From: Bacteroidetes bacterium GWE2_42_24
GTDB taxonomy: Bacteria > Bacteroidota > Bacteroidia > Bacteroidales > TTA-H9
DNA length: 64,000 nt
Reading direction: 5' to 3'
Assembly (NCBI GenBank): GCA_001768515.1
Contig: MEOA01000045.1
Span: 97,406 to 161,405 of the forward strand
Part shown: positions 4,113-58,898 of the stretch, in pieces
Layout: each line of letters opens with the position of its first letter
Numbering within the stretch: the stretch's first letter is position 1
The notes under the pieces: generated by a model
What the model was told of the DNA's origin: nothing
What the model saw: the letters and a program-made list of their open reading frames with translations, nothing else
Databases searched by the model: none
Made by a program: the position numbers and the translations under genes

Positions 4113-4545
4113 TGAATGGCCATGTTTCTTTTAGGTTATCAAGAAGCCCGACATTTTTATTGAACTTACTTATTCATCCGACCTTTATCTAACACCTTTA
4201 ATAACTGCATCAGGAAACGATGCATGTCTTTTTTATTGTCTATCTCATGGATAAATTCCAAATTCCGGATACGTTTTTATATTAATTTAGCCCCTCCTGA
4301 ACAAAATATTTCAACTTTTTTTTAATTATTTTTGTAATATACGATTACAAAAATCCTTTTTTTAATTAATTGGTTATGGGTTATTTAAAGATAAAAAACA
4401 CACAAGAGAGGGGACAAAGATAGGCCAAAGTTAGGGCAAAGTTATGTTTTTCTTATGTATCGCCTATGGTTGTAGTAACGTTTGAGTATCTTATATATGA
4501 AAGGAATGTAACTATGTGTAATTTTTGGCACAATTTTAGTGGTCA
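4113..4545 (+). repeat. Dispersed non-coding module, copy 1
   Basis: 4446-4500 matches 29012-29066 at 54/55 nt. The whole segment aligns by eye to the reverse complement of 58466-58898. Confidence 0.92.
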
Positions 4546-5110
4546 TCATTAAACAACAATTTTAGTTATGGGAATAATCCGGGCAGAACCACTACCAGTC
4601 ACCTGATACTCCTCAAACGATTTAAAAGTGAACATAGAAATTCTAACCTCCACCATGTGGAAAGCCATACCATGCATTCTCTATGGTCTGTATCGGAGCA
4701 ACTTGAACAATTTATAGAATTCTTTGCTGTTCTGCCGGTGTTTGTGTGAATTGTGATCATCAATCCGATTAGCCGGGGCTTCTACTGCTTCCGATCCTGA
4801 ATACAATATAATGGAATGGCAAATGGATGTTCCTATATAAATGTATTTTTCGTATTAACGGCTAAGCAATATCCTTCGATACTCTGATGTAGTAAGTGTA
4901 ATAGCAAATGCAATATTGGTTGTTCAGGCAGAGATGAGAATATTTCATAGTATCCTGCTATATAATGAATCATACATAACCTGGCGGAATGCATTAAGAA
5001 AGGTGGATAAGTATTGAAGAATTGGAGATGCAGCGTATGAGAAGCTTCAAGAGTATACAAGTGGTGCGCTTGAGAAAACTGCCAGCAGATTATGCAGATC
5101 TTTAAAAAAA

Positions 5111-5150
5111 AATCAGCCCTTACAATTTGTTGTAACGGGCTGATTTTCTT
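5111..5150. terminator. Intrinsic terminator downstream of tRNA-Thr, possibly bidirectional
   Basis: AATCAGCCCTTACAA-tttg-TTGTAACGGGCTGATT flanked by an A9 tract and a T-rich tract. Confidence 0.8.
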
Positions 5151-5152
5151 TG

Positions 5153-5225
5153 AGCCGATGAAGGGACTTGAACCCCCGACCAGCTGATTACAAATCAGCT
5201 GCTCTACCAACTGAGCTACATCGGC
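5153..5225 (-). tRNA. tRNA-Thr (TGT)
   Basis: Reverse complement GCCGATGTAGCTCAGTTGGTAGAGCAGCTGATTTGTAATCAGCTGGTCGGGGGTTCAAGTCCCTTCATCGGCT folds as a cloverleaf with anticodon TGT; CCA not encoded. Confidence 0.97.
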
Positions 5226-5406
5226 AAGGTTTTGTCGAAACCGGTGGCAAAAGTAAGAAAAGCGTTTGATTCTGGCAAACAGTTTTAGTATATTTATTTA
5301 TATTCGATCTGTTGGAGGCTCCGGAACAGCGGGTGGGGGCAATGACCTTTTTTTATACCTTTGCGCCTTAAATACTGTACCTGAAAAGAACAAACTCATT
5401 AACTGT

Positions 5407-6279
5407 ATGCCTTTCAGAATAATAGTTCTTGCCAAACAAGTACCCGATACGCGCAATGTTGGCAAAGATGCCATGAAAGCCGACGGGACTGTCAACAGGG
5501 CCGCATTGCCTGCCATTTTCAATCCCGAAGATTTACATGCCCTCGAACTGGCCCTTAGAATTAAGGATCAGATAAACGATGCAGAAATTGTAGTCGTGAG
5601 TATGGGACCCGGCAGGGCTGCCGAGATCATTCGTGAAGCCATGTACCGTGGTGCCGATCGGGGTGTTTTGGTCACAGATCGTAAATTTGCCGGAAGCGAT
5701 ACCCTTGCTACCAGCTACGCCTTGTCACTGGCGGTAAAGAAGTTGGCTCCATTCAATGTGTTGATTGCAGGACGTCAGGCCATCGACGGGGATACCGCAC
5801 AGGTTGGACCGCAAACAGCCGAGAAGTTGCACATTCCACAGATTACCTATGCCGAAGAACTGGTTGACGTCAATTCAAAGCAGATTACCATCAAGCGCAG
5901 GCTTGAGCGTGGTATTGAAGTGGTGCGTTCACCGCTGCCGGTTGCCATTACCGTACATAGTTCGGCTCCTGTATGCCGCCCCCGTAATGCCATATTGGTG
6001 ATGAAATTCAAACACGCCCGTACTACTACGGAACTTCAGGAGGAGACCAAAGATTACACCGAATTGCGGTTGTATCGCCCTTACCTGAACATCGAAGAAT
6101 GGTCGGTTGAAGACATTCAGGCTGAGACCGAAAAGTTGGGTCTGTCGGGATCACCTACCAAGGTAAAAAAGATTGAAAATGTGGTGCTTCAGCGTAAAGA
6201 GTCAAAGGCCTTTACAGCCGATGATAAAGATATTGATCTTCTGATGCAGGAACTTATGGCATCACACGTGATTGGCTAA
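5407..6279 (+). CDS. etfB: Electron transfer flavoprotein beta subunit
   Basis: KQVPD, NPED, GSDTLATS and GRQAIDGDTAQVG motifs. Start moved to ATG 5407. Confidence 0.93.
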   Translation: MPFRIIVLAKQVPDTRNVGKDAMKADGTVNRAALPAIFNPEDLHALELALRIKDQINDAEIVVVSMGPGRAAEIIREAMYRGADRGVLVTDRKFAGSDTLATSYALSLAVKKLAPFNVLIAGRQAIDGDTAQVGPQTAEKLHIPQITYAEELVDVNSKQITIKRRLERGIEVVRSPLPVAITVHSSAPVCRPRNAILVMKFKHARTTTELQEETKDYTELRLYRPYLNIEEWSVEDIQAETEKLGLSGSPTKVKKIENVVLQRKESKAFTADDKDIDLLMQELMASHVIG

Positions 6280-6312
6280 TCTCCCTACAAATATTTAAAA
6301 ACCTGAAAGATT

Positions 6313-7335
6313 GTGAACAACGTCATAGTATATTGTGAGATCACCGAAGAAGGCCATGTTGCAGAGGTGAGTCAGGAACTCCTTTCCAAAGGAAGGAAAT
6401 TAGCCAGCGATCTGGGCATAAAGCTTGAAGCCATAGCTATTGGCAATAAACTCGATAACATCGAAAAAGATATTCTCCCTTATGGCGCAGATGTGATACA
6501 TATTGCCGATGATAAACGGCTGTTTCCCTATACCACACTTCCCCATGCAGCCATTTTGCTTAAACTATTTGAGGAGATAAAACCTGAAATCGCGCTATTT
6601 GGAGCTACTTCCATTGGCCGTGATCTGGCTCCACGGGTTGCTTCAGCCATGCGCTGCGGACTGACTGCTGATTGTACAAGTCTCGAAATTGGAGACCATA
6701 CTGAAGCCAAGACAAATACGACTTATAAGAACCTGCTATATCAGATTCGCCCTGCATTTGGGGGTAATATCATTGCCACCATCATCAATCCCGACACCCG
6801 GCCTCAGATGGCTACAGTTCGTGAAGGCGTGATGAAGAAAGAATTCTGGCCGGCAGTTGCCAAGCCAGAAGTAAACAAACTTGATGTTGCAAAATATGTG
6901 AATGATGAGCAGTTTGTGGTCAGGATCATTGAGCGGCATATTGAGTCGCAAAAGATCAACATCAAAAATGCCCAGGTGATCGTGGCAGGTGGCTACGGTG
7001 TAGGTTCAAAAGAAAACTTCGATCTACTGTTTGATCTGGCTGACGTATTGGGGGCACAGGTTGGTGCTTCACGCGCAGCCGTTGATGCCGGCTATGTTGA
7101 ACATGAGCGGCAGATCGGGCAGACAGGGGTTACCGTACGTCCAAAACTTTACATCGCCTGCGGTATCAGTGGTGCCGTACAGCACCGCGCCGGCATGGAT
7201 CAGGCTTCGATGATTATCTCCGTCAATACCGATCCCAATGCCCCTATTAATCAGATTGCCGATTATACAATACTCGGGCAGGTACATGAAGTGGTACCAC
7301 GTATGATTAAATATTACAGGCAAAACAGTAAATAA
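6313..7335 (+). CDS. etfA: Electron transfer flavoprotein alpha subunit
   Basis: GLTADCT, RPAFGGN, GASRAAVD, QIGQTG, GISGAVQH motifs. Confidence 0.95.
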   Translation: MNNVIVYCEITEEGHVAEVSQELLSKGRKLASDLGIKLEAIAIGNKLDNIEKDILPYGADVIHIADDKRLFPYTTLPHAAILLKLFEEIKPEIALFGATSIGRDLAPRVASAMRCGLTADCTSLEIGDHTEAKTNTTYKNLLYQIRPAFGGNIIATIINPDTRPQMATVREGVMKKEFWPAVAKPEVNKLDVAKYVNDEQFVVRIIERHIESQKINIKNAQVIVAGGYGVGSKENFDLLFDLADVLGAQVGASRAAVDAGYVEHERQIGQTGVTVRPKLYIACGISGAVQHRAGMDQASMIISVNTDPNAPINQIADYTILGQVHEVVPRMIKYYRQNSK

Positions 7336-7373
7336 CAGGCGGACTGAAGTTATTACCAAAAAATTGAAGAAAA

Positions 7374-9089
7374 ATGGCTAATTATTATACCGATAATAAG
7401 AATCTACGCTTCCATCTCGAACATCCATTGATGGAGAAAATTGTTCGCCTGAAAGAGCAGAATTATATCGACAAAGAGAAGTATGATTATGCTCCGCTTG
7501 ATTACGAAGACACTATCGATAGTTACGATAAGGTGTTAGAAATCGTCGGTGAAATCTCTGGCGATATCATAGGGCCCAATGCTGAATCTGTTGATCACGA
7601 TGGCCCGAAGATCGTCAACAACGAGGTGGTTTATGCACCCGGTACTCAGAAGAATCTTGAGGCTATTGTGAATGCGGGTCTTTTCGGCATGTCGCTTCCT
7701 CGGGAATTTGGCGGGCTTAATTTCGCCATGGTGCCCTATGTGATGGCTGCTGAGATTGTGTCGCGTTCCGATGCCGGATTTGCTAACATCTGGGGTTTGC
7801 AGGATTGTGCCGAGACCATTCATGAGTTTGCATCTGAAGAAATCAAACGTGAATTTTTACCACGCTTTGCGAAAGGAGCCACAGCAGCAATGGATCTTAC
7901 TGAGCCAGATGCAGGCAGCGATTTACAGGCAGTTCAATTAAAGGCCACCTGGGATGAGGCAGCAAAGGTATGGCGTCTGAATGGGGTGAAGCGTTTTATC
8001 ACCAATGGCGATGCTCATGTATCGCTTGTGCTGGCCCGCTCAGAAGAAGGAACTTCCGATGCACGTGGTTTGTCGTTATTTGTATACGACCGTGCAAGTC
8101 AGGCTATGACAGTAAGACGTATCGAGAATAAACTTGGTATTAAGGGTTCGCCGACGTGTGAACTGGTGTTTAACAATGCACCGGCTCATCTGATTGGCGA
8201 CCGCAAGATGGGCCTCATCAAATATGTTATGTCGTTGATGAACTCTGCCCGCCTGGGGGTTGGTGCGCAGTCGGTCGGTATTGCCGAGGCTGCTTATCGT
8301 GAAGCTGTTAAATATGCCCACGAGCGCGAGCAGTTTGGTAAGGCCATCGTCAATTACCCAGCGGTATACGAGATGCTCACCCTTATGAAGGTGCGTACCG
8401 ATGCCATCCGTAGTTTGCTCTATGAAACCGCTCGTTTTGTAGATGTGTACAAGGCTTACAACATCATTGCCGAAACCCGTAAGCTGGATGCCGACGAGCG
8501 GAATGAGGCCAAGAGCTACCAGAAGTTGGCTGATGTGTTCACTCCTTTGCTGAAACTGTTTTCATCGGAGTATTGTAACCAGATTGCCTATGATTCTCTG
8601 CAGATTCATGGCGGGACAGGTTTCATGAAGGATTTTCCCATCGAAAGGATTTACCGGGATGCCCGCATCACAACAATCTACGAAGGTACGAGTCAGTTGC
8701 AGGTGGTAGCTGCCATCCGTGGTGTTACCAGTGGTTTGTTGTTAAAGGTACTCCGAGATTATGCGGGTCGTAATGTTCATCCCGAGCAGGAGCCATTGCG
8801 CAGGGTGCTTATCAGCATGACAGACAGATACGAACAGGCCGTGAGTTTCATCGAGGAATTCAAAGATGGCGAATATACTGATTTCCATGCACGTCGTCTT
8901 GTTGAATTGGCCGGTAACATCGTGATGGGTTATCTGCTGCTTGATGACTGCCAGCGTGATGATTCCTTTGAGCGGACAGCCAACATCTTCATTACGAAGG
9001 TAAATGCAGAAAACCTTCAGCATGAAAACTATATCAAAACCTTCAATCCCAAAGAACTCGGTGAGTTCAAGGCGGTTTTTGAAGCATAA
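7374..9089 (+). CDS. Acyl-CoA dehydrogenase (long form with C-terminal extension)
   Basis: LTEPDAGSD, NGVKRFITNG, REQFGK, QIHGG.G, IYEGTSQLQ motifs; in an operon with etfBA. Confidence 0.93.
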   Translation: MANYYTDNKNLRFHLEHPLMEKIVRLKEQNYIDKEKYDYAPLDYEDTIDSYDKVLEIVGEISGDIIGPNAESVDHDGPKIVNNEVVYAPGTQKNLEAIVNAGLFGMSLPREFGGLNFAMVPYVMAAEIVSRSDAGFANIWGLQDCAETIHEFASEEIKREFLPRFAKGATAAMDLTEPDAGSDLQAVQLKATWDEAAKVWRLNGVKRFITNGDAHVSLVLARSEEGTSDARGLSLFVYDRASQAMTVRRIENKLGIKGSPTCELVFNNAPAHLIGDRKMGLIKYVMSLMNSARLGVGAQSVGIAEAAYREAVKYAHEREQFGKAIVNYPAVYEMLTLMKVRTDAIRSLLYETARFVDVYKAYNIIAETRKLDADERNEAKSYQKLADVFTPLLKLFSSEYCNQIAYDSLQIHGGTGFMKDFPIERIYRDARITTIYEGTSQLQVVAAIRGVTSGLLLKVLRDYAGRNVHPEQEPLRRVLISMTDRYEQAVSFIEEFKDGEYTDFHARRLVELAGNIVMGYLLLDDCQRDDSFERTANIFITKVNAENLQHENYIKTFNPKELGEFKAVFEA

Positions 9090-9176
9090 TTTTTTAATGT
9101 GAAAAATTCTGTATGAGACGTTTGTTAAGTGTTTGTACAGAATTTTTTTCTATGTTTGGTTATTAATTCACCTTTT

Positions 9177-9797
9177 ATGCGTTTGCCTGACAAAATCAAA
9201 TCGACGCTCATAGGCTGGATGTACGGGAAGTATAGTTATCGTTATTTAAGCTATTTCAAATCCCGGAAAATCTGGACGCCTAAATCACCTTGTGTGAAGA
9301 GTGAGATTCAGGCGCTACTGCTCCCATTTTTCCAGAAGCCGAGAAATTCGGCTTTCTTTCAGACCGAAAAGAATATCCATTTTGGTGATATTCCTTTCCA
9401 GACTTCTCTTTCAACATTTTTAAAACGCAGGCTTGAGCCTGTATGTTTCAGTGCTTTCATGCTTGATCAACACGAAATGCGTGTTTTTGGCTATCCGGCA
9501 GATTTTAATGGTTTTCCTGTAAAATCTGCATGGTTTTTCCTTAATAACTCATTGGTGATGGGAGAGTACCAGTTTAACCTGCGTGACGACGACCATTCCC
9601 GTATTGTCGCGATGCTTACCAGGGTTTATGCGCTGGCTGACATGAATGCGAAAGAGAATTTTTACATTGAGGATGAGACCGGAAGTATCATCTACGCCGA
9701 ACGTAAGGGCGGTAAGTTTTTCCTGCGATTCTTCACACAAGACAATTCTGAGAGGTATAATCTGATCGAAAAATGGATTAAGAAGCTACAGAAGTAG
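9177..9797 (+). CDS. Hypothetical protein
   Basis: ORF of about 206 aa from ATG 9177 that fills the gap before a shared terminator; no recognisable motif. Confidence 0.65.
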   Translation: MRLPDKIKSTLIGWMYGKYSYRYLSYFKSRKIWTPKSPCVKSEIQALLLPFFQKPRNSAFFQTEKNIHFGDIPFQTSLSTFLKRRLEPVCFSAFMLDQHEMRVFGYPADFNGFPVKSAWFFLNNSLVMGEYQFNLRDDDHSRIVAMLTRVYALADMNAKENFYIEDETGSIIYAERKGGKFFLRFFTQDNSERYNLIEKWIKKLQK

Positions 9798-9811
9798 TGC
9801 TTATGAAGAGT

Positions 9812-9846
9812 AAAATGGCCGGATGAGAAATCATCCGGCCATTTTT
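9812..9846. terminator. Bidirectional terminator
   Basis: AAAATGGCCGGATGA-gaaa-TCATCCGGCCATTTT between convergent genes. Confidence 0.85.
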
Positions 9847-9865
9847 ATTATCAGGTATAGAATTT

Positions 9866-12430
9866 TTACTGAGTAGATGTCTCGAGCAGTTTCTCACCAG
9901 AAGCAGGAATAATCCTGATTGCAACATCATCCTTCTCTTTATCAAAATCAACCACAATCTGATCCCCTTCATGGATGTGCGATTTAATGATCTCTTCTGC
10001 CAGAGCATCTTCGACGTATTTCTGGATTGCGCGTTTGAGTGGACGAGCACCAAATTGGGGATCCCATCCTTTATCGGCAATAAAGTCTTTGGCTTCGGGC
10101 GATACCTCAATCCGGTAACGGAGTTTGCATACCCTTTCGATGACAGATTTGAGTTCGATGTCAATGATTTTATGTATGTCATCACGCTCGAGGCTCTCGA
10201 AAATTATGATGTCGTCGATTCTGTTCAAAAACTCGGGTGCAAAAGATTTTTTAAGTGCATTTTCAATCACCCCTCTGGCATATTCACTTTGGGCAGACTG
10301 ACGGGCTGAAGTGCTGAAGCCTACCCCTTGTCCGAAGTCCTTCAACTGACGCGAGCCAATGTTCGAGGTCATGATAACAATAGTGTTTTTAAAATCTACC
10401 CTGCGGCCCAGGCTATCAGTTAATTGTCCATCGTCGAGAACTTGTAACAGCAGATGGAACACATCAGGGTGGGCCTTCTCGATTTCATCAAGCAAAACAA
10501 TTGAATAGGGCTTACGCCGGACTTTTTCGGTTAGCTGGCCACCTTCTTCATAGCCCACATAACCCGGAGGTGCTCCCACAAGCCTTGATACAGCAAACTT
10601 CTCCATGTATTCACTCATATCGACGCGGATGAGGGTATCTTCGGAGTCGAAGAGATAGCGGGCAAGTACTTTTGCCAGATGGGTTTTCCCAACACCGGTT
10701 GGTCCGAGGAAGACGAAGGTGCCAATGGGTTTATTTGGGTCTTTCAGCCCTGCTCTGTTGCGACGTATTGCCTTGACCACTTTACGTATCGCCTGATCCT
10801 GACCGATGATACTCATCTGAAGTTCTTCCTCCATGTGCACCAGTCGATCGCTCTCATTCTGGGCGATACGTTGCACAGGCACACCAGTCATCATGGCCAC
10901 AACCTCAGCGACATTTTCGTCGGATACAATTTCACGGTTGAGGCGTGAATCTTCTTCCCATTTTTTGCGGGCCTGTTCAAGTTCAGCCTGCAATTTACGT
11001 TCCTGATCACGATAAGTGGCAGCTTCTTCAAACTTCTGACTGCTGATGGCAAGGCCCTTTTTTACCTTTACATCTTCGATACGGGTTTCCACACTCAGGA
11101 TATCCTGAGGTACGTGTATGTTTTTGATATGAACCCGGGCACCTGCTTCATCAAGTGCATCGATGGCCTTGTCGGGCAAATAACGGTCAGAAATATAGCG
11201 ATTGGTAAGAGAGACGCAGGCCTGAATGGCATCGTCGGTATATCGCACCAGGTGATGATCCTCATATTTTTCCTTGATGCGATTCAGTATCTCCAGTGTT
11301 TCATCAGAAGTAGTGGGGTCGACCAATACTTTCTGGAAACGACGCTCTAAAGCGCCATCTTTTTCGATGTATTGGCGGTATTCGTCGAGGGTAGTAGCCC
11401 CGATGCACTGTATTTCGCCTCGCGCCAATGCAGGTTTGAACATGTTCGAGGCGTCGAGCGATCCACTGGCATTTCCGGCTCCCACAAGAGTATGAATTTC
11501 GTCGATGAAGAGGATGATGTCGGGATTTTTTTCCAATTCGTTGAGAACGGCTTTCATCCGTTCTTCAAATTGGCCACGATATTTTGTGCCGGCAACCAAA
11601 GAACCCAGATCAAGCGTGACAATCCTTTTGCTGAAGAGTGACCGCGGAACCTGACGATTTGTTATACGCAGAGCAAGCCCTTCGGCGATGGCCGATTTAC
11701 CTACACCTGGTTCTCCAATTAGAATTGGGTTGTTCTTCTTGCGGCGGCTGAGAATTTGGGCAATACGTTCCATCTCCTTGTCACGTCCCACGATAGGATC
11801 TAACCTCCCTTCTTCGGCAGCACGGGTAATGTCACGACCAAAATTGTCGAGGACAGGTGTTTTTGATTTGGGATCTGTTGCTTTTTTGAAGCTTGAATCC
11901 TTATCGTCGTCGGAATCATCATCAGAGCCTCCGCGAGGAGAGATGTCTGCTCTGGGTCCATCATCGGCTTTCAAAGGAATGTCGCGGGTAGGTTCAGACG
12001 ACATGGTCCGTACTTCATTGAGCAATGATTCGTAAGAGATGTTGAATCGTTCGAGGGTACGGGTTACCATATTGTCAGTGTCTTTAAGAATTGCGAGGAT
12101 TAGGTGTTCTGTACCGATCAGTTCGCTTTTGAATTGTTTTGCTTCGAGGTATGTTAATTTCAGGGCACGTTCGGCCTGTTTGACGAGTGGGATATTTTCT
12201 GAGCTGATAACCCGTGGATTTGGATTGGTAATGGCTTTTTCGATTACCTGACGTGCCTGCCCAAGATCAGCACCCAAATAGGCCATGATCTGAACAGCCA
12301 TCCCTTCGCCTTCCCTGAGAATGCCGAGGAACAGGTGCTCTACACCGATGTAATCGTTGCCCAGCCTGACAGCTTCTTCACGGCTATAGGTCAGCACATC
12401 TTTGACTCTTTGCGAGAATTTTGCTTCCAT
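9866..12430 (-). CDS. clpC: ATP-dependent Clp protease ATP-binding subunit ClpC
   Basis: Clp N-domain, two AAA modules (GEPGVGKS; GPTGVGKT), UVR domain, VGF ClpP-binding loop. Confidence 0.95.
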
Positions 12431-12528
12431 TTATATTAGATTCTTTTGCATTAATCTTAACAAGTCACCAGTAAAAACGTTTACCGGTATTTAAAATTGC
12501 TTCTTTAGTAACAGATTACCCCGTACAG

Positions 12529-12543
12529 TCAAAAACTGCGCCA
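12529..12543 (-). promoter_or_regulatory. Sigma54-like -24/-12 box upstream of clpC
   Basis: TGGCGCAGTTTTTGA (GG-N10-GA) about 100 bp upstream of the clpC start. Confidence 0.5.
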
Positions 12544-12615
12544 TTTTCTCTAAAGAGAAATAATGTCATTCAAAAGTAATGCACATTCAGACACAAAGCA
12601 GGCCTGCTTTCAAAT

Positions 12616-12643
12616 ATTTATCAACAATCGTTTGTTGATAAAT
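12616..12643. promoter_or_regulatory. Perfect 12-bp inverted repeat containing two DnaA-box-like 9-mers, upstream of gyrA
   Basis: ATTTATCAACAA-tcgt-TTGTTGATAAAT; TTATCAACA is one mismatch from TTATCCACA. Confidence 0.5.
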
Positions 12644-12750
12644 CGGTTAATATTCAACTGGCTTTGTAACTAAAAAAAACGTACCTTCGTACCTTAAAAG
12701 TTAGATATATAAACTATTGTTTATCAGTTAGTTTTTGTTAAAATAATCTC

Positions 12751-15279
12751 ATGGAATTACCTGAAGAAAAAATTGTTCCGGTAAATATTGAAACCCAGAT
12801 GAAAACAGCCTACATCGATTATTCGATGTCGGTCATTGTTTCCAGGGCATTACCTGATGTCCGTGACGGACTAAAGCCTGTCCACCGCCGGATTTTATTC
12901 GGTATGTATGATCTGGGGATTTTGTCGAACCGGGGTTACAAGAAATCGGCACGTATTGTTGGTGAAGTGCTTGGTAAGTATCATCCGCATGGTGACTCAT
13001 CGGTGTATGATGCAATGGTACGGATGGCACAGGACTGGTCGTTGAGGTACCCATTAGTTGACGGGCAGGGAAACTTTGGCTCTATTGACCAGGATCCTCC
13101 TGCTGCAATGCGATACACTGAAGCCAGGCTCCGAAAACTTGCCGAGGAGATGTTGGATGATCTCGACAAGGAGACAGTCGACTTCCAGCTTAACTTCGAT
13201 GACTCATTGGAAGAACCTACTGTTTTGCCTGCCAAAGTGCCTAATCTTTTGATCAATGGCACAAGTGGTATCGCCGTCGGCATGGCCACCAACATGGCTC
13301 CTCACAACCTTAAAGAGGTGATTGATGGAACAATTGCATACATTGACAACGGTGAGATTACCATTCCCGAGTTGATGAAGTTTATTAAGGGACCCGACTT
13401 CCCGACCGGAGGAATCATTTATGGCTATGAAGGTGTCAGGGAAGCTTATGAGACCGGTCGAGGCAGAATCATTATCAGAGGAGAAACCAAAATTGAACCC
13501 GAAGATAATGGTCGCGAACGGATCATTGTGACCTCTATCCCATATCAGGTGAATAAGGCCGAGATGATTAAAAAGACCGCCGACCTCGTCAATGAGAAGA
13601 AAATAGAAGGTATTAGCGATATCAGGGATGAATCAGACCGTGATGGTCTGAGAATCGTGTACGAGCTTAAGCGTGACGCCAATACGAACGTTGTGCTTAA
13701 TAAGTTGTACCAGATGACACCCTTGCAGACCAGTTTCAGTGTGAATAGTATCGCTCTGGTTCATGGTCGCCCGGTGACCCTTAATCTGAAGGATATCATC
13801 AAATATTTTGTTGAGCACAGGCATGAAGTAGTGGTACGTCGTACTCAGTATGAGTTGCGGCAAGCCGAAAAGCGTGCCCATATCCTTGAAGGCTTGCTGA
13901 AAGCACTTGATCATATCGAAGAGGTAATAGCCCTGATCCGTGCAAGCCGTTCTCCTGAAGCCGCCCGTGAAGGCCTGATGACAACTTTCGATTTGAGTGA
14001 GGAACAGGCAAAGGCCATTCTGGCTATGAGACTTCAAGCCCTTACTGGGTTGGAGCGTGAAAAACTTGAAGAAGAATATAAAGAGCTTAAGCGTCTCATC
14101 GACTATTACAATTCATTGCTGGCCGATAAAGAACTTCGCATGGAAGTTATTAAGACAGAGTTGCGTGAATTAAGAGAGAAGTATGGTGACGAGCCTAAGA
14201 CCGATATTGAATATTTGGCTCAGGATTTCAAAATTGAAGACACTATTTCGGATGACAGCGTAGTGATTACTATCTCTCACTTTGGATACGTTAAACGTAC
14301 ACTACTCACGGAATACCGTGTACAAGCACGCGGTGGACGCGGATCAAAAGGAAGTGAAACTCGTGACGATGATTTCGTGGAACATCTTTTTGTAGCGACC
14401 AACCATAACTACATACTTTTCTTTACGGAAAAAGGAAAAGTTTATTGGCTCAGGGCATTTGAAATTCCTGAAGGTGCCAAAACATCCAAAGGGAGGGCTA
14501 TTCAGAACCTGATCAATATTGATCCCGATGATAAAGTCCGTGCGTATATTAACGTGACGAGTCTTTCGGATTCAGATTATATTCAGAGTAATTTCATCAT
14601 CCTATGCACCAGACATGGTACTATTAAGAAGACTTCTCTTGAAGCCTATTCAAGACCACGTCAGAATGGTATTATTGCGGTAAATATAAAGGATGACGAT
14701 ATGCTGCTGGAAGCCCGAATGACCAATGGTAACAGTGTTGTGCTCATGGGGCTGCGCTCAGGACGGGCTATCAGATTCAATGAACAACGTGTACGCCCGA
14801 TGGGGAGAACGGCTACAGGTGTTAGAGGCGTTACCCTGGCTGGTTCCGACGATGAGGTCATCGGAATGATATGTGTAGATGGCAACGAATCGAACATTTT
14901 AGTCGTCTCAGAGAATGGATACGGGAAACGTTCTTTGCTCGAAAGCTACCGTGAAACCAATCGAGGTGGTAAGGGTGTTAAAACAATGAATGTTACGGAT
15001 AAAACCGGTGCACTCATTGCCATTTGCGACGTGACGGATCAGGAAGATCTGATGATCATCAACCGCAGCGGGATTATCATTAGGACACCAGTCTCAGATT
15101 TACGCGTCATGGGTCGTGCCACGCAGGGTGTCAGACTAATCAATATCCGCGAAGGCGACTCTATTGCTGCCATTACGAAAGTTGATGGGTATGAACCTGA
15201 AGACGAAATTACTGACGATCAGGATGTGAGCCCTGTACAGGATGATCAACTGGTAGATGGCACTGTTATTGATAGTTAA
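12751..15279 (+). CDS. gyrA: DNA gyrase subunit A
   Basis: [17 protein letters not shown] active-site Tyr, GyrA-box QARGGRG, C-terminal pinwheel repeats. Confidence 0.97.
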
Positions 15280-28015: not shown

Positions 28016-28146
28016 GGTGATGATTTGAACGGCAAATTTCATCATTTTTTTATCAGTAACCCATATTTTGGCGAAAAAAATGGACTACCTTTGCCCGATT
28101 TTTGGAAAGTAGGTTTCCGGAAAAAAAGCAAACTAGATATAAATAG

Positions 28147-28335
28147 TTGAAATACAATCACAAAGAGTTGGTTCCGCGGGATAAATCTTTTAGCCGATCA
28201 GAGTTGGAAATGAAGGGATTTTTTTTTGCAGGCGAAGATATTCCCGGGTTATTTGTTTTTGAAATAGAGGGGGTACAACTGTATTTCCGTAAAACTGGTA
28301 CTGATCTTTATCAAATATTTTCACTTTCCTCATAG
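28147..28335 (+). CDS. Small hypothetical protein (62 aa)
   Basis: TTG start after an A-rich leader; TACCTTTG -7 box at about 28086; protein-like composition. Confidence 0.45.
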   Translation: MKYNHKELVPRDKSFSRSELEMKGFFFAGEDIPGLFVFEIEGVQLYFRKTGTDLYQIFSLSS

Positions 28336-28822: not shown

Positions 28823-29110
28823 TTCTAAATTTCAGACATGCTTTTGCGTGTTATTTCTCCCCTCTCAAAAAATAAATCAACTTTTTTTCAACTTTTTTTG
28901 TAACTCGCTGTCACAGAACTAATTTTTTTAATATATTGATTATGTGTTATTTAGGGGTCAAAAATACACCCGAGAGGGGTCAGAGATAGACCAAAGTCGG
29001 GTCAAAGATAGGTTTTTCTTATGTATCGCCTATGGTTGTAGTAACGTTCGAGTATCTTATATATGATATAAATCTAACTATGTGTAATTTTTGGCACAGT
29101 TTTAGTGGCA
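28823..29110 (+). repeat. Dispersed non-coding module, copy 2 (5' part more diverged)
   Basis: Same palindrome, 11-mer triplet, core and TGGCAC box as copy 1, at a constant offset of 24566. Confidence 0.92.
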
Positions 29111-29601
29111 ACAATTTTTCTGCAGGGTTTGGGTATAGAATATTCAAGCGAAAACCCCTGCAAATTATCCAGAGCCCCATCAGTTTTTTTTAAACCGGGC
29201 ATGGTATGCTCTCTATTTACACAACCCCCGAAGTGACTCCATGTGATCTCCATAATGACCGCAAGGGAAGAATGTAAACATCCATTCTTAAGACATACAC
29301 TAACCCTGGCATAAGCAAGACCAAATGAGGTTGTTATGATATAGTTACAGACTTGTGAAGAGAAACATCCTGAAGAACTTCAAAGAATCATGCTCAAATT
29401 TTCATTATGAGAAAATTCCATAGCTACATCCTTCTCCCAGATTTCGGCAAAATCGTATAATTGTGAGCAATTATGTGGTTTATTAGATATTATATTGTTG
29501 ATATACACAATATTGAAAATGTGATCCGTATATATTTTGGAGTTTGATCGGAAGTCGAATTGTGAAATTCGCAGAGGGTTTTTTTGATAAAAAGCAAATA
29601 A

Positions 29602-29627: not shown

Positions 29628-29638
29628 AATTGGAATTG

Positions 29639-29711
29639 AGCGGGAAACGGGATTCGAACCCGCGACCTAAAGCTTGGGAAGCTTTCGCTCTGCCAACTGA
29701 GCTATTCCCGC
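29639..29711 (-). tRNA. tRNA-Gly (CCC)
   Basis: Reverse complement GCGGGAATAGCTCAGTTGGCAGAGCGAAAGCTTCCCAAGCTTTAGGTCGCGGGTTCGAATCCCGTTTCCCGCT; anticodon CCC. Confidence 0.97.
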
Positions 29712-48830: not shown

Positions 48831-48842
48831 GGTATAATTTAC

Positions 48843-48937: not shown

Positions 48938-48979
48938 TGCCTGTTCAGGGACACCGCATACAATGTTCCTGAACAGGCA
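48938..48979 (-). terminator. Hairpin after the S9 peptidase gene
   Basis: TGCCTGTTCAGG...CCTGAACAGGCA. Confidence 0.6.
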
Positions 48980-48986
48980 CTGAAAA

Positions 48987-51566: not shown

Positions 51567-51631
51567 GCAAATCTGGAGTTTAATTTGGTGACGAAATTTA
51601 ATGAATAAGAAATCTGAATTTCTTAAAGAGG

Positions 51632-54600
51632 TTAACTATTTACCTGTGTTGTGGGAAGAATAAACATAAACTGGCTCCCTTCTCCCTGCCGGCTTGTGGC
51701 CCAGATACGTCCATTGTTTCTGGTAATGAACTCATGGCAGAGAATGAGCCCCAGGCCCGTTCCTGCTTCATTGGCCGTTCCTTCGGTTTTTACTTTTTCG
51801 CCGGTTTTAAACAGTTTGGCAAGGTCAGAGGTAATAATTCCTGTCCCATGATCTTCGACGGTTACCTTTAGGTAGTTTGTAGTTGCATTGTCGGCAAGAT
51901 CGGGATGGCCAGGCTCAAGAATCTCTGTTGTCAATGCGACAATCGAGCCCGGGTAGGAGAATTTGATGGCATTGGTGAGCAGGTTTCTGATAACAGTTCT
52001 TACCATGTTAAGGTCAGCAAAGACCCAACTGTTTCCCTGCTGACTGGTTTCGAATTTTATCCCTTTTGCCTGCGCCTGGGGAGCAATCACCTGAAGGCTG
52101 TTGGTGATGGGTATGTTGATGTCGATGGGCTGAGGGTCGAATTGAAGGCTTCCTGTTTGCGACCTTGCCCATTCCAGTAAGTTATTCAGCAACCGGAAGG
52201 CACTCTGAGCGCCTATTTCTATCTGCCCGATGTATTCTTTTTTTATAGTATCCGACAACTCATCATAATCATGCGATAGGATGTCGGCATAGCCGAGGAT
52301 AATGTTGAACGGGTTCTTGAGGTCGTGGGCCAGAATGCTGAAGAACTTATCCTTGGTTGCATTAAGATCTCTGAGTTGGGATTCACTGTCGATCAGCATT
52401 CTTTGCGATTCGCGTTCTTCGCTTATGTCGCGGATAACAAGCATCCCGAGCGTAATTTCCTGATTGGGTTCTATCACCGGGACTGCCTGTATCTGACATA
52501 GCCTGTTGGCGAAAGTGATTTCTGCCATCGGGTGATGACCTTCAAACGACTTGTTCATCATGTCGGTGATGGTTCTGTTATCCTCCTCCGAATGAATAGG
52601 AAACCCGGAGAATTTCCCTTCAAGCGACATCGTCTGGAATCCCATTTCTGAAAGCAGGGGTCCCTCGGTAAGAATATACTTTTTACTGCGGTCGTAAAGT
52701 AATACAGCGGTTTGAGGTAGTTGCCTGACCAGTTCACGATACATGTTTTTTCGGCGTTGCAGCTCGGTCTCTGTCTGCTTCTGGAGGGTGATGTCTTCTT
52801 TTATAGCGATGTATTGAGTGATTTGGTTGTCGCTGTTCTTTACCGGGGTAATCAGCGCGTTCTCCCAATACAGTTCCCCGTTCTTGCGGCGGTTCAGGAA
52901 CTCTCCTTTCCATGGTTCGCCACCGGAGATGGTTCGCCACAGGTTTTTGTAAAAGGTTTCATTATGCCGGCCCGATTTCAGGATGGCCGGTTTCTGCCCA
53001 ATAGCTTCATCGCTTGTATACCCGCTAATTTGTGTGAATTTCTGATTTACATACGTGATGACTCCGGCCACATCGGTCATTACAACCACAACCGCGTTTT
53101 GTTCTACTGCCGTTCTAAGCAGGATGTTTTCCTGTACTACCTTTTTAAGTCGCGTGATGTCACGGATGGCCGTAATATTTACTGTCCTCCCTTTAAACTG
53201 CATCGGTCTGTTCAAAATCTCAACCTGAACCGGATCCCCCGTGCATAATAAAGAGGTTTGAAATTCACCTTCAGTTTTCTCATTAAAAACAAGCGAGAGC
53301 CTGGTGAGGTCATCTTCAGGGAAACAATCACTGATCCGTTTGGTGTTGAGCTCCGCCTCCGTTATCCCCAGAAGATTCCGAAAAGACTGATTTGCCATGA
53401 GAATTCGCCCATTGAGGTGGATGATGATGCCCTCGAAAGTGGAATTTGATAATTCACGGAAATGACGTTCGCTTCTCTTTTCATACCGGTAAAGCAGGTA
53501 GATTAATATGAGCGCAACGAACGCTGAAATCGAAATGATGATTAATATCCGGAGACGGTTGCTTGCCTTCTCTATAGTTTTATTGGTCTGGTATTCGATT
53601 TGTAATGCATCGAGTGCCGATCTGACCTCTTCAGTACGGTTTGATTTGAATGAGTTAATCAGCGTGTCTGTGGCAGAACGCAATTCTTCATTGTAATAGG
53701 CGAGGCTGTCGTTGTGGGAAGCATTGATAAGCCACTGGCACTTTAACTGAACCGATTCATAATACTCTTCAATTAGATTTATCTTCTTGCCCAGTTTTAG
53801 GGAAATGTTCATGTACTTCTCTGCTTTCTCGTACGCGCCCGCATTGTGAAGAAATTTTGCCAGACGCATGCTGGCAAGCAACATTCCCCGCTTGCTCCTG
53901 CACTTTTCATATTGAGCATAAGATGCTTCATACGAGCGTGTTGCCACTTCAATCTTGCCTGAACTCTCTGCCGCGACGCCCAGGTTAAATAAAGCAGCAC
54001 ATACGAGGGTTGAATCGTAACGGTCATGCTTCTTTTTGTTGTTCATCACGAAAAGGGCTTCCCGTGTTACCTCTTCTGCCCGGGCATAATCTTTCAGACT
54101 GATGTAAGCCTGACCTATGTATATCTTGGAATGGGCAATCAGATAAGGGTCGCTCATTGTCTTCCTGACCTTCAATGCACGATTGAACCATACAAGGGCT
54201 GAATCAGGTTGTTCCCTGGCCTGAAATGTCAGGCCAATGTTGTTCATTGCCAATGCTGTGCCATGGGTGTCTTTGGCTGATATGAACATTTTCAGTTGCT
54301 TCTGGTAATCATGCGATGCCATCTCGTAGAATCCCTGCGCGAAGAACGTGTTGGCGATGTCGCTGAGCGAATAAGCCTGTCCTTTAATACTCCCGGCTTC
54401 CTGAAAAAAACGGTACCCCTCCATCAGGTATTTCAAGGCGAGGCTATACTGCTCTTTTGATTGATAGTACACGCCAAGATCGTTATTGATATGCCCAAGT
54501 CCTTCGAGGCTTCCATGCTTTTTTTCCCATTCAAGAATTTGAAAAAGGATGGCTGTCGGATCATCCGGATAGGCTCTCTTCTTAAATTGGTCCCGTAGCA

Positions 54601-54757
54601 TCTTTAGCTTTGCGGAATCCGGATCGTGGGTGCTCCTGCTAAGTACTCCCAGCCAGGAAGAAGCCATGCACTCTGCCGGCAGGGTTATGCTCAGCAACAG
54701 GCTGATGAGCATAAGCAGGAGTGGCGTTTTGTATGATATATACCGGTTTAAATTCAT
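51632..54757 (-). CDS. TPR-TM-PAS histidine kinase (orphan)
   Basis: Periplasmic TPRs, TM helix, about 3 PAS domains (W.GEF.NRRKNGELYWE), AHDLKNPF H-box, GTGLGL. Confidence 0.9.
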   Translation of the reverse strand: MNLNRYISYKTPLLLMLISLLLSITLPAECMASSWLGVLSRSTHDPDSAKLKMLRDQFKKRAYPDDPTAILFQILEWEKKHGSLEGLGHINNDLGVYYQSKEQYSLALKYLMEGYRFFQEAGSIKGQAYSLSDIANTFFAQGFYEMASHDYQKQLKMFISAKDTHGTALAMNNIGLTFQAREQPDSALVWFNRALKVRKTMSDPYLIAHSKIYIGQAYISLKDYARAEEVTREALFVMNNKKKHDRYDSTLVCAALFNLGVAAESSGKIEVATRSYEASYAQYEKCRSKRGMLLASMRLAKFLHNAGAYEKAEKYMNISLKLGKKINLIEEYYESVQLKCQWLINASHNDSLAYYNEELRSATDTLINSFKSNRTEEVRSALDALQIEYQTNKTIEKASNRLRILIIISISAFVALILIYLLYRYEKRSERHFRELSNSTFEGIIIHLNGRILMANQSFRNLLGITEAELNTKRISDCFPEDDLTRLSLVFNEKTEGEFQTSLLCTGDPVQVEILNRPMQFKGRTVNITAIRDITRLKKVVQENILLRTAVEQNAVVVVMTDVAGVITYVNQKFTQISGYTSDEAIGQKPAILKSGRHNETFYKNLWRTISGGEPWKGEFLNRRKNGELYWENALITPVKNSDNQITQYIAIKEDITLQKQTETELQRRKNMYRELVRQLPQTAVLLYDRSKKYILTEGPLLSEMGFQTMSLEGKFSGFPIHSEEDNRTITDMMNKSFEGHHPMAEITFANRLCQIQAVPVIEPNQEITLGMLVIRDISEERESQRMLIDSESQLRDLNATKDKFFSILAHDLKNPFNIILGYADILSHDYDELSDTIKKEYIGQIEIGAQSAFRLLNNLLEWARSQTGSLQFDPQPIDINIPITNSLQVIAPQAQAKGIKFETSQQGNSWVFADLNMVRTVIRNLLTNAIKFSYPGSIVALTTEILEPGHPDLADNATTNYLKVTVEDHGTGIITSDLAKLFKTGEKVKTEGTANEAGTGLGLILCHEFITRNNGRIWATSRQGEGSQFMFILPTTQVNS

Positions 54758-55173
54758 TACAGCTTGATTGACAGGAAATGTCGGTTAAAGATAATCCGAA
54801 ACCAGGGTTTTGTAATGCACATTTTTCAACATGCGAATTTTAAAACCTTCATGATACCGGTACGTGAAACAGATTAACGTTTTCAGTTTGTTGATGATTA
54901 TTTCGTTATACGCTGATTAACCGACCCGGGTTACTAGAAGAAAAGGTCATATAGTCTGCTAATATAAAACATAAGATTGCAATGATTGTTGATACCGGGA
55001 AAATAATTTGCATAAAGACCCGGTTGAGCCATTAGCATCTCCTTAATGCACATCATATAACGGGTGATTGGTTGAAACGATGCTGACTTTGTTATTGCCG
55101 GTACCTTGCCCAGCCGGGATTTCTGTTTGCCGCCGAAGGTCATTGATTAAACAATGCTTGTCGGAAGTATGTG

Positions 55174-55202
55174 AAAAAAAAGGCCGGACAAAATGTCCGG
55201 CC
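55174..55202 (-). terminator. Terminator after the oxidoreductase operon
   Basis: A8-GGCCGGACA-aaa-TGTCCGGCC. Confidence 0.8.
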
Positions 55203-55225
55203 CTGATTGAAATATAAGTATCGAA

Positions 55226-55768
55226 TTAAACTTTCTCCACAATTTCAAGCCCTTTGGCAATGGCCTTCATATTCATGGGGATAGATTTATGATGTCGTGC
55301 CGGAAGCGATTTGGCCAATCCTTTTTCAACATTCTCCATTTTAACAATGGGTTTCAGCTTCAGAAAAGCGCCGAGCACAATCATGTTGAAGGTCTTGGCC
55401 GATCCCATGGCTGTAGCTGCTTCAGTTGCCTGAATTCTGTAGATGTTGATGTCGGTACGTGAAGGATGTCTGGTGATCCCGTTGGGGTCGTATAACAAGA
55501 TACCACCCGGTTTCACGGTTTTCTCAAACTTATCCATCGACTGCTGGTTGAGGATGATGGCTGTGTCGAATTGATTCAGAATGGGCGAACTGATGCGTTC
55601 GTCGCTCAGAATCACGGTAACGTTGGCTGTGCCGCCACGCATTTCAGGGCCATAGCTGGGCATCCAGGCTACTTCCTGATCTTGCATGATGCCTGAGTAG
55701 GCCAGAATTTTCCCCATAGAGAGAACACCCTGTCCGCCGAATCCGGCTATAATAATTTCTTCAGTCAT
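55226..55768 (-). CDS. 2-oxoacid:ferredoxin oxidoreductase gamma subunit
   Basis: AGFGGQG, PSYGPEMRGG, NMIVLGA. Confidence 0.93.
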   Translation of the reverse strand: MTEEIIIAGFGGQGVLSMGKILAYSGIMQDQEVAWMPSYGPEMRGGTANVTVILSDERISSPILNQFDTAIILNQQSMDKFEKTVKPGGILLYDPNGITRHPSRTDINIYRIQATEAATAMGSAKTFNMIVLGAFLKLKPIVKMENVEKGLAKSLPARHHKSIPMNMKAIAKGLEIVEKV

Positions 55769-55793
55769 TGTATTACGTTTTTCTGATTTTCAA

Positions 55794-56582
55794 TTATTTT
55801 ACCAATTCACCGTTCATTTTAATGTCGCCCAACTCGTAGAACGGGAACATGTTGTTCACCATCCATTCATTGGCTTTTACAGGTGAAAGCTTCCAACCTG
55901 AATTACAGTTGCTCACTATTTCAACAAAGCTTACGCCTTTGTTGAGCTTCTGGTTTTCAAAAGCCATACGGATGGCCTTTTTAGCTTTGCGGACGGCGGC
56001 AGGCGTATGCACTGCCTGACGGGTAACCATGTAAGTGCCGGGAAGTGTGGCCACAATTTCGGTCATCTTCAGGGGGTTTCCCATGATCTGGGTATCACGT
56101 CCGTAAGGAGAGGTGCTGGTGGGCATGCCGGGCAGCGTGGTAGGAGCCATCTGTCCGCCTGTCATTCCATAAATCCCGTTGTTGATGAAGATGATAACAA
56201 TGTTCTCACCACGGTTGCAGGCATGAATCGTTTCAGCCGTTCCTATGGCAGCAAGGTCGCCATCACCCTGATAGGTGAATACGAACTTCCCGGGATAAAG
56301 ACGTTTGATGGCTGTTGCCAGCGCGGGTGCACGTCCGTGAGCTGCCTGCTGCATATCGATATCAAAGAAGTTGTAGGCAAGTACCGAACAACCAACCGGC
56401 GCAACGCCAATGGTGTTGTTCTGGATGCCCATCTCGTCAATCACTTCAGCAATAAGGCGGTGGGCTGTACCATGACCACAACCTGGGCAATACGACATGA
56501 CGTTGTCGGTAAGGACTTTCGTTTTCGAATAAACGAGGTTTTCGGGTGTCCTGATTTCGGGTTTATCAAATGTTTCTGTCAT
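55794..56582 (-). CDS. 2-oxoacid:ferredoxin oxidoreductase beta (TPP-binding) subunit
   Basis: YCPGCGH, HGRA, GDGDLAAIG...NNGIYGMTGGQ. Confidence 0.93.
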   Translation of the reverse strand: MTETFDKPEIRTPENLVYSKTKVLTDNVMSYCPGCGHGTAHRLIAEVIDEMGIQNNTIGVAPVGCSVLAYNFFDIDMQQAAHGRAPALATAIKRLYPGKFVFTYQGDGDLAAIGTAETIHACNRGENIVIIFINNGIYGMTGGQMAPTTLPGMPTSTSPYGRDTQIMGNPLKMTEIVATLPGTYMVTRQAVHTPAAVRKAKKAIRMAFENQKLNKGVSFVEIVSNCNSGWKLSPVKANEWMVNNMFPFYELGDIKMNGELVK

Positions 56583-56584
56583 GG

Positions 56585-57667
56585 TTATCCTCCAATAATT
56601 TTAGTTTCAAGTGCTTTTACCACTTCGTCGGGTGTGGGGACAATGCCGCCGTAACGACCGAAATGTTCAACTTTTACTTTGCCGTTAACAGCCAGTCTGA
56701 CGTCTTCTACCATCTGTCCGGCACTCATTTCAACCGACAGAATTCCTTTAACCTGTGAGGCCAGCTTGCTGATGGCTTCCGAAGGATAAGGGAAGAGGGT
56801 GATGGGGCGCAGCAATCCTACCTTGATCCCCTTTTTACGGGCAGTCTGGACGGCTTTCTGGCAAATGCGGGCGCTCGATCCATAAGCTACCAGCAGGTAG
56901 TCGGCATCCTCGGTATCGAAGGTTTCGAATCGTACTTCATTGTCCTGCATCTGTTTGTATTTAGCCTGCAGCTTAATGTTGTGAAGTTCCTGTTTTGCTG
57001 AATCAAGTTCGAGCGATGTGATGATGCGGCGGGGGCCATTCTTCGGACGGCCTGTTGTTGCCCATGGGCACTCTGTGGCCACTTCTTCATCGGTGCGCCG
57101 TGAAATCTGCGGGTTCAATTCTACCTTTTCCATCATCTGGCCTATGACGCCATCAGATAAGATCAATACCGGGTTGCGGTATTTGAAGGCAAGTTCAAAG
57201 CCAAGACCGGCAAAGTCTGCCATTTCCTGAACTGAAGCAGGGGCCAGTACAATGAGCTTGTAGTCGCCGTGTCCACCGCCTTTTGTTGATTGGAAATAGT
57301 CGCTCTGTGAAGGTTGAATAGTTCCTAACCCGGGGCCGCCACGAACAACATTAAGTATAAGGGCCGGAAGCTCGGCTCCGGCTATGTATGAAATGCCTTC
57401 CTGTTTAAGGCTTATCCCCGGGCTTGATGACGAGGTCACCACCTTTTTTCCGCAGGCGGCACCACCATATACCATGTTGATGGCAGCCACTTCGCTCTCG
57501 GCTTGTAGAACCACCATACCGGTGCGCTCGTAAGGTTTCTGAGCCATAAGATACTCCAGTACTTCGCTTTGCGGCGTGATGGGGTACCCAAAGTAGCCGT
57601 CAACGCCTGCCCTGATGACAGCTTCGGCAAATGCCTCGTTGCCCTTCATTAATTTGAGTTCTTTCAT
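56585..57667 (-). CDS. vorB: 2-oxoacid:ferredoxin oxidoreductase alpha subunit (VorB-like)
   Basis: GNEA.AEA, YFGYPITPQSE, QAESE, SSSPG.SLKQE, RGGPGLG. Confidence 0.9.
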   Translation of the reverse strand: MKELKLMKGNEAFAEAVIRAGVDGYFGYPITPQSEVLEYLMAQKPYERTGMVVLQAESEVAAINMVYGGAACGKKVVTSSSSPGISLKQEGISYIAGAELPALILNVVRGGPGLGTIQPSQSDYFQSTKGGGHGDYKLIVLAPASVQEMADFAGLGFELAFKYRNPVLILSDGVIGQMMEKVELNPQISRRTDEEVATECPWATTGRPKNGPRRIITSLELDSAKQELHNIKLQAKYKQMQDNEVRFETFDTEDADYLLVAYGSSARICQKAVQTARKKGIKVGLLRPITLFPYPSEAISKLASQVKGILSVEMSAGQMVEDVRLAVNGKVKVEHFGRYGGIVPTPDEVVKALETKIIGG

Positions 57668-57697
57668 CCCTGTAATGATTTTTTGGTTTGAATCTCG

Positions 57698-57919
57698 TTA
57701 AACTTTTGCACGGTAAACTGTGATGACCCCGTCGGGGCATACAACAGCACAGTTGGCGCAACCTACACAGTTGCCGTTTACCTTGATTGCATAATTATAG
57801 CCTTTGCTATTGACCTCTTTCGACATCCCGATTACTTCCTGCGGACACGCCGTGTTGCACACTTCGCATCCCTTGCATTTTTCGATGTCAATTACAATGT
57901 CTCCTGTGATTTTTGCCAT
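57698..57919 (-). CDS. 2x[4Fe-4S] ferredoxin (delta subunit)
   Basis: CKGCEVC...CP and CVGCANC...CP; start at ATG 57919. Confidence 0.93.
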   Translation of the reverse strand: MAKITGDIVIDIEKCKGCEVCNTACPQEVIGMSKEVNSKGYNYAIKVNGNCVGCANCAVVCPDGVITVYRAKV

Positions 57920-58465
57920 AATGGTGTGATTTGTAGGTGCTCTGTAATTATTATTTAGATGCACGAAAGTACTGATTTTACCCCAAAGCGCCTAATTTTC
58001 ACCCTTCAATTTGTATAACGCCTCTTAATTTATAACTGATATAAATAAATGATAAACGCCTATGCAATTGATACCTCGTCACTTTTAGTGTGAATTTGAG
58101 AACCGTCCTGAATCACGTGTTCGAATTTGCTCATTAGCTGTATTGGTTGCTGTCGGTACAAATCCAAAAAGTAACGATCAGTGTGGCTGTGATGGAACGG
58201 TGAAATGAAAAACTGGTTCCTGATCCTGATCAGGGCATGTACCAGCTGCCATCACTTTTTGTTCTAAGTAAAATGTTGTCAGGATATTACTTATAATTAA
58301 CTGAGCGCGTTGATTGTGCCAACCAATTGATATTTAATGTGCAGGCTATCGCCGGTGCGGCCGTCGCGTGTTCCGGGTTAGCAGGTGTATTGCCGAACTG
58401 TTTTCGCGACAATTCAGGGGTTATGCCTCCCCTTTTTTCGGGAAAAGTAATGATGAAAATTTGTC

Positions 58466-58898
58466 ACCACTAAAACTGTGCCAAAATTTTTACATAATTA
58501 ATCCTCCCACATATAAAAATTACTCCATAGTTACTACAGCCATAGGCGATACATAAGAAAAACCTATCTTTGACCTAACTTTGGCCTATCTTTGGGGTAG
58601 CTCAGCTATATTTTCGACTTCTAAATAACATATGATCAATTAGATAAAATATTGAGTTTTGTGACAGCGTGTTACGAAAAAATTTTGAAAAAAGTTGAAA
58701 TTTTTTCTCAGGAAGGGTGAAACAAGCGTAATAATGCGTCCAAAATTTGGAATTACATTCAAGAGACAGACAATAAAAAGTCGGGCATCGTTTCCTGATA
58801 CAATTATGAAAAATGGTTTAGATGAAGGTTAGATGAATAGGTAATTTCAAATGAAAATTGCGCGCCGCATGATAGCCTGAAAGAAGCATATCCATTCA
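58466..58898 (-). repeat. Dispersed non-coding module, copy 3 (inverted)
   Basis: Reverse complement of 58530-58563 matches the core at 33/34 nt; similarity to copy 1 extends about 430 bp. Confidence 0.92.

Follow-up and report, generated by a model that had tools for sequence, protein, structure and literature searches.

Why an intergenic sequence should recur three times within 64,000 nucleotides, with its spacers heavily substituted and the distances between its parts unchanged, is the question raised by one stretch of Bacteroidetes bacterium GWE2_42_24 (positions 97,406 to 161,405 of contig MEOA01000045.1, called here, at its full 64,000 nt, the window). A preliminary description of this DNA had recorded three copies of a non-coding module, each with four elements, a palindrome, tandem 11-mers, a core and a TGGCAC box, and its coordinates are exact for all three copies. 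The palindrome centre lies 185 nt from the T of TGGCAC in each (4341/4526, 28907/29092 and 58668/58483), and the first 11-mer, starting at 4415, 28981 and 58594, is in each 111 nt from the same T. The answer favored here, tentatively and at somewhat less than even confidence, is that the module is a repeat derived from a mobile element and that its core is a helically phased sigma-54-like promoter platform, in other words a portable activator-dependent cassette.

The organism is a groundwater Bacteroidota with 4.32 Mb of sequence in 67 contigs (G000), and it was compared with a sister species (G002, assembly 76% complete) and a third congener (G001, 96% complete). A blastn search with window positions 4100-4560 gave 58 rows in this genome including the query itself, nearly all of them ending at query positions 431-444 and four at 451-461, with starts at four nested positions. 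A sequence-only model of the 138-nt core, built from a 30-copy alignment with 84% mean column identity and gaps of single bases only, has 63 matches here, 58 of which have E values of 7e-9 or better; four of the five weak ones are members of a second repeat family described below. In the sister species the same model detects 42 copies. No match came from G001 or from 10 other members of the family, nor, under stricter filters, from 150 additional genomes of the order. With 58 copies in this genome and 42 in G002, the predicted genome-wide abundance and the idea of a portable cassette are borne out.

The locus of copy 2 measures 1,349 nt in this genome and 158 nt in G001, and G002 carries the module there. 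At syntenic loci of this genome and G002 the module core can be aligned and the remaining spacer cannot, and a core that is alone alignable within otherwise unalignable spacers suggests constraint. A core match in G002, on the same contig as the syntenic copy of copy 2 and at a similar distance from it, is likely the counterpart of copy 3, and copy 1 is without a counterpart in G002, where an unrelated 750-nt spacer is present. Over the 138-nt core, the G002 copy syntenic with copy 2 is 0.67 identical to copy 2 as against 0.80 to a non-syntenic copy of this genome, and it has the other core variant, which suggests replacement or exchange among copies. Species-specific homogenisation was considered and rejected, mean core identity being 0.670 within this genome, 0.671 within G002 (seven copies) and 0.659 between them, values that are lower bounds since copies with an upstream flank cut by a contig end, such as the recombinase-bearing one, are read out of register.

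Read 5′ to 3′, the module starts with weak blocks from about -430 relative to the box, including a twice-repeated 15-mer, followed by an A/T-rich run; this reach, found in most copies, goes beyond the extent given earlier. There follow the palindrome, an IHF-like (integration host factor) palindromic block, a variable spacer and two to four tandem 11-mers, and at the end the 34-nt core, a second conserved block in two linked variants, and the TGGCAC-N5 box. The palindrome is TGTGA-N6-TCACA (TGT-N10-ACA) in most copies and TGTAAC-N5-GTCACA in the three of the window. The consensus of the A/T-rich block next to it is itself a palindrome that matches the IHF consensus, which makes it a candidate site.

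Spacing and box composition were counted over 53 copies, with two rows cut by contig ends, two without a full window and one degenerate copy omitted. Distances to the box are 111 nt (51 copies) or 110 nt (two) for the first 11-mer and 80 nt (51) or 79 nt (two) for the core; the right palindrome arm is at 178 nt in 37 copies, 179 in seven, 177 in two, 180 in one, and 167 or 166 in six. The stretch from the palindrome to the end has 41 indel events, 35 of 1-2 nt, which are mainly N10/N11 variants of the palindrome, and all six above 3 nt are deletions of exactly 11 nt. Mean pairwise identity, again a lower bound, is 0.73-0.77 from -120 to 0 as against 0.25-0.44 in the flanks. Helical phasing, which free indels between the elements would have contradicted, comes through the comparison because no such indels are found, every long one being a single 11-nt unit, and a phased protein-DNA platform is supported by the spacing of the family.

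At the box itself, GG is present at -24 in 52 copies and G at -12 in all 53, and the canonical GG-N10-G spacing never varies. The base after the -12 G is T in 43 copies, C in five, A in three and G in two, with -12 tetramers of TAGT (25), TTGT (17), TAGC (3), TTGC (2), TTGA (2) and others (4), so that TTG fills the first three positions in 21. A strict box pattern, a regular expression derived from the alignment columns, has 60 matches in the genome where about 27 are expected by composition, and 42 of them are within modules; of the 18 outside, several are in front of genes and one is just downstream of an activator gene, and some resemble typical sigma-54 promoters. One rpoN is encoded (one Sigma54_DBD match), and the enhancer-binding proteins of the genome are represented by 15 strong Sigma54_activat matches plus two weak AAA matches. 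A sigma-54-type promoter of the GG-N10-GT form, as proposed earlier, is the best reading of the box: the GG and G spacing, rpoN and the 15 activators stand on its side. The canonical -12 element of sigma-54 promoters is a GC dinucleotide (TTGC), and assignment of the module to that class is held back because so few copies have it and because RpoN action is inferred.

Two NtrC-type response regulators have orthologues in G002 at 83% and 82%, their best matches in G001 being at 43-47%. Both (contigs C4 and C43) are followed by a PAS histidine kinase and adjoined by MacB/FtsX-like permease genes, and as lineage-restricted proteins the pair provides a weak lead to a matching activator. Just past the kinase gene of the C4 regulator there is a copy of the second repeat family (C4:11964-12066). 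In a flavobacterium, according to one study, typical -24/-12 promoters drive protein quality control and envelope stress genes (PMC9723704).

If the favored reading is right, a lineage-specific repeat would have been spread by a tyrosine-recombinase mobile element, most copies now being non-autonomous relics. Its conserved hub, from about -240 to +10 with weaker similarity to -430 and +350, would function as double-stranded DNA that assembles proteins in a fixed helical register, the order being palindrome (TGT-N10/11-ACA, about -185), IHF-like A/T-rich site, two to four 11-bp iterons from -111, 34-nt core and -24/-12-type box. RpoN holoenzyme would occupy the box, an upstream-bound enhancer-binding activator would be looped onto it, and transcription would cross the arm of about 350 nt, which is non-coding and unstructured, before entering whatever lies beyond.

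The case for a mobile origin comes from a 628-amino-acid open frame with Phage_integrase and SAM-like domains that surfaced in a search for recurring neighbours and whose database twin has 611 amino acids. It starts 1,068 nt upstream of one module copy and points away from it; no Pfam family scores above cut-off over its N-terminal 340 residues. Upstream of five more copies, relics comprising the last 28-94 codons of the gene occupy the matching place, and two further fragments occur without a module. Three places have identical joints at -2664/-1024, as expected of a deletion derivative that multiplied, and six have a common left end about 45 nt past the recombinase stop codon. The G002 copy syntenic with copy 2 also bears a relic; G002 holds only such C-terminal relics and G001 only a 47%-identical homologue. 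Apart from these relics no neighbour gene recurs. The 58 non-coding copies, the one copy with a full recombinase gene and the three places with a common internal deletion are traits like those of miniature inverted-repeat transposable elements, and the repeat was probably left by a mobile element. That a transcript from the box serves the large recombinase is very improbable.

The earlier statement that no transposase is visible is true of the window; genome-wide, the tyrosine recombinase or its relics accompany six of 56 copies (the number used also for tRNA distances and downstream frames), and because of this the alternative of a recombination site with arm-type repeats stays alive. The recombinase has 466 database relatives and, among the matches listed, identities are about 57-64% and lengths 577-665 amino acids, with many on contigs of 2-3 kb, which suggests that the element is widespread and multi-copy in Prolixibacteraceae-like Bacteroidota. 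At the copy 1 locus of G002 and among metagenome contigs over window positions 2000-8000, which never joined across the element, no empty site was found from which to fix the element ends. One related metagenome run covers 3246-4467 and 4472-4782 in two contigs, ending within the module at copy 1, and short joints in 4233-4509, with sides under 40 letters, probably stem from paralogous copies. A tRNA gene is within 2.5 kb of six of the 56 copies where about three are expected; a tRNA-targeted island was rejected, only these six being so placed, as was an invertible promoter, there being no consistent flanking inverted repeats at the window copies.

Similarity had been described as collapsing shortly after the TGGCAC box. 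Strong similarity does stop there, but a weaker homology of about 350 nt goes on in about 30 copies (17 strong ones, which seeded the profile, plus partial matches), and nine fragments of this downstream arm are located away from any module. The arm is A-rich (A 0.32, G 0.20). A tblastx comparison gave 1,448 rows spread evenly over all six frames, so that there is no coding signal and small proteins encoded by the arm are ruled out. Rfam matches in the window are limited to two tRNAs, and a permissive scan of four other copies gave none on the module. RNAalifold with 10 downstream arms yielded -0.45 kcal/mol without a consensus fold, and the folding energies of 12 arms, set against shuffles, have mean z scores of +0.23 forward and -0.08 reverse. 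Within the module, the column pairs that rank highest by mutual information are linked haplotypes and not Watson-Crick exchanges. The earlier alternative of a structured RNA, left without Rfam match, consensus fold or compensatory covariation, has consequently been dropped.

The first downstream frame of at least 100 amino acids shares the strand of the module in 29 cases, lies opposite in 24 and is lacking in three (p = 0.58), and 10 of the 29 same-strand frames begin 357-500 nt downstream, just beyond the conserved arm. The 30 same-strand products are mixed: HSP90, an M48 peptidase, NlpE/META, two Na/H exchangers, regulators, kinases, electron transfer flavoprotein and others, with five lacking a family. 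A regulon theme is excluded by these mixed functions. Type IX secretion system sorting domains occur in proteins neighbouring copies, a trait indicative of Bacteroidota, and the named relatives of the recombinase indicate a group close to Prolixibacteraceae.

A second interspersed repeat, about 136 nt long with about 19 copies that are 75-91% identical, has the 11-mers and neighbouring blocks in common with the module. It opens with a twice-repeated 10-mer and ends sharply before any -24/-12 box. Copies were found in G002 and none in G001, G003 or G010. Because this box-less family bears the same 11-mers, the iterons are not tied to the box. Short GC-rich hairpin repeats stand in tandem downstream of the module copies at C3:287156, C9:76801 and C43:158766, and the genome seems rich in several unrelated small repeats.

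Several of the observations weigh against a mobile promoter platform. Canonical GC at -12 is found in only five of 53 copies, with GT in 43, and the genes downstream have neither a theme nor an orientation in common (29 same strand, 24 opposite). The 11-mers may serve propagation rather than activation. As to the mobile origin, the recombinase is intact at one copy and a relic at five, leaving 50 of the 56 copies without either, and the three window copies have no consistent flanking terminal inverted repeats. A direct repeat joining the element ends, plausible by eye, matches at 8-10 of 16 positions, which is inside the shuffle null. In 11 named loci of recombinase relatives in metagenome-assembled genomes the module and box are absent within 4 kb, and because of this the link between recombinase and module may be local or secondary.

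On another reading the module would not be a promoter at all and instead the cis-acting end, or arm, of the recombinase element, with iterons, palindrome and IHF-like site building a recombination complex, the 3′ boundary marking the crossover or terminus, and the likeness of the box to a promoter being incidental. We regard this as unlikely, though it is a serious rival. The 11-mers, at helical pitch beside an IHF-like site, resemble integrase arm-type clusters, homology in the recombinase-linked subfamily ends at the box, the box-less second family, whose species range is identical, has these iterons as well, 48 of the 53 copies depart from the canonical -12 element, and the six copies near tRNA genes are about twice the expectation. 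Against it, about 30 copies remain homologous for about 350 nt beyond the supposed terminus, the end-to-end direct repeat is not above chance and no inverted core sites are seen. GG is kept in 52 copies and the -12 G in every one, at exact sigma-54 spacing, and syntenic copies have been conserved though the sole intact recombinase found is that of this genome, the G002 assembly having relics only.

The downstream arm prompts a different thought, that some 58 paralogous genes for non-coding RNAs make up a host regulon, each with its own activator-dependent promoter and with the arm of about 350 nt as functional product. The arm is indeed non-coding by its even tblastx spread, homologous in about 30 copies and A-rich; random orientation to neighbouring genes suits independent genes, and sigma-54-driven small RNA paralogues such as Qrr and GlmY exist elsewhere. 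Against it, the supposed product is much less conserved than its promoter (0.25-0.44 as against 0.73-0.77) and has no fold by either the RNAalifold energy or the mean z of +0.23, the recombinase-linked copies have little or no arm in common with the rest, and the congener lacks the family, all of which makes it improbable. The palindrome and the strictly conserved length could be taken as signs that the module belongs to a known RNA family or is otherwise a structured RNA; with Rfam matches confined to the two tRNAs of the window, the permissive scan of four other copies empty on the module, and covarying columns that are haplotypes, this reading is hardly credible.

Comparison with known systems helps to place the proposed mobile promoter platform. 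Like enhancer-dependent sigma-54 promoters of the glnAp2, nifH and Pu type, in which an IHF bend accompanies the upstream activator site, the module combines GG and G spaced as at -24/-12 with a TGT-N10-ACA-type palindrome lying 100-200 nt farther upstream and an IHF-like site between; unlike them it has -12 GT in 43 of 53 copies, tandem 11-mers, and a region of about 240 nt repeated about 58 times. With the P′1-P′3 arm-type sites of phage lambda it has in common tandem direct repeats of about one helical turn, an IHF site, a sharp boundary nearby and, at one copy, a phage-integrase-family gene, and it differs in having no common core repeat at both ends, in the homology beyond the boundary in many copies and in the 50 of 56 copies without recombinase trace. 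Qrr1-5 and GlmY/GlmZ resemble what the family would be as RNA genes, several paralogous non-coding transcripts with activator-dependent promoters and conserved upstream sites, but they are short and structured and exceed their promoters in conservation, the reverse of what is seen here.

Dispersed bacterial repeats that carry promoters are already known, and we know of none that has a complete, rigidly phased activator-dependent promoter region; a literature search found none. The Correia repeat enclosed elements of Neisseria are dispersed and intergenic, contain an IHF site and promoters, and can alter the expression of neighbouring genes (PMC2649163). To that extent they are like the module, with its IHF-like site and promoter-like sequence; they are short and bounded by inverted repeats, and their promoters are not described there as of sigma-54 type. 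No terminal inverted repeats were found in the module, and there is no sequence relation between the two.

If active, the modules could put about 58 unrelated loci under one signal, and the repeat would show how a sigma-54 regulon grows by transposition within a genus. A bolder extension, that a mobile cassette of enhancer and promoter has captured the sigma-54 network of this one small lineage and that one lineage-specific activator switches about 58 loci on, is a speculation we rate as decidedly unlikely; the two NtrC-type regulators common to G002 and missing from the module-free congener would be the candidates, and if true it would be a bacterial counterpart of the transposon-borne enhancers that rewire regulons. 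For annotation, the family accounts for otherwise unexplained intergenic stretches of 0.5-1.3 kb.

Table. Coordinates of the module copies, their parts and related features (window positions unless a contig is given)
Feature	Position	Strand	Remarks
Copy 1, long form	4113..4545	+	blastn; extra upstream part of about 200 nt common to 8 copies
Terminator-like hairpin then T run	4206..4224	+	Within upstream extension of long subfamily; kept in 8 long copies
Perfect 11+5+11 palindrome (TGT-N11-ACA) of copy 1	4328..4354	+	
A/T-rich block of copy 1	4364..4376	+	Family consensus here is a palindrome
Three tandem 11-mers (CAAAG...) of copy 1	4415..4447	+	2 to 4 units in other copies
34-nt core of copy 1	4446..4479	+	Best conserved block of the family
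TGGCAC-N5-TAGT, sigma-54-like -24/-12 box of copy 1	4526..4540	+	Strong similarity stops here
Right arm of copy 1, downstream of box	4546..4725	+	Non-coding, weakly conserved; nhmmer E 1e-17
tRNA-Thr	5152..5225	-	Convergent, 612 nt downstream of copy 1
Copy 2	28823..29108	+	Palindrome 28899-28915, 11-mers 28981-29013, box 29092-29106
Right arm of copy 2	29112..29449	+	Weak similarity to downstream region of the family; E 1.8e-15
tRNA-Gly	29638..29711	-	Convergent, 532 nt downstream of copy 2
Copy 3, long form	58466..58901	-	Palindrome 58660-58676, 11-mers 58562-58594, box 58469-58483
Only intact large tyrosine recombinase gene of this genome	C52:31232-33115		At contig end
Second repeat family, examples	C7:45599-45819, C15:72821-72956, C4:11964-12066		About 16 more

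The terminator-like hairpin and T run precede the box by about 300 nt and share its strand, and their conservation in the long subfamily only raises the thought that they might insulate the module from read-through. The first gene past tRNA-Thr (window 5266-6279) encodes a protein with an electron-transfer-flavoprotein domain and is on the strand of copy 1, behind the convergent tRNA. Immediately left of the copy 2 spacer, a short stretch at window positions 28080-28330 is alignable between this genome, G002 and G001 and might represent a small gene that lacks annotation.

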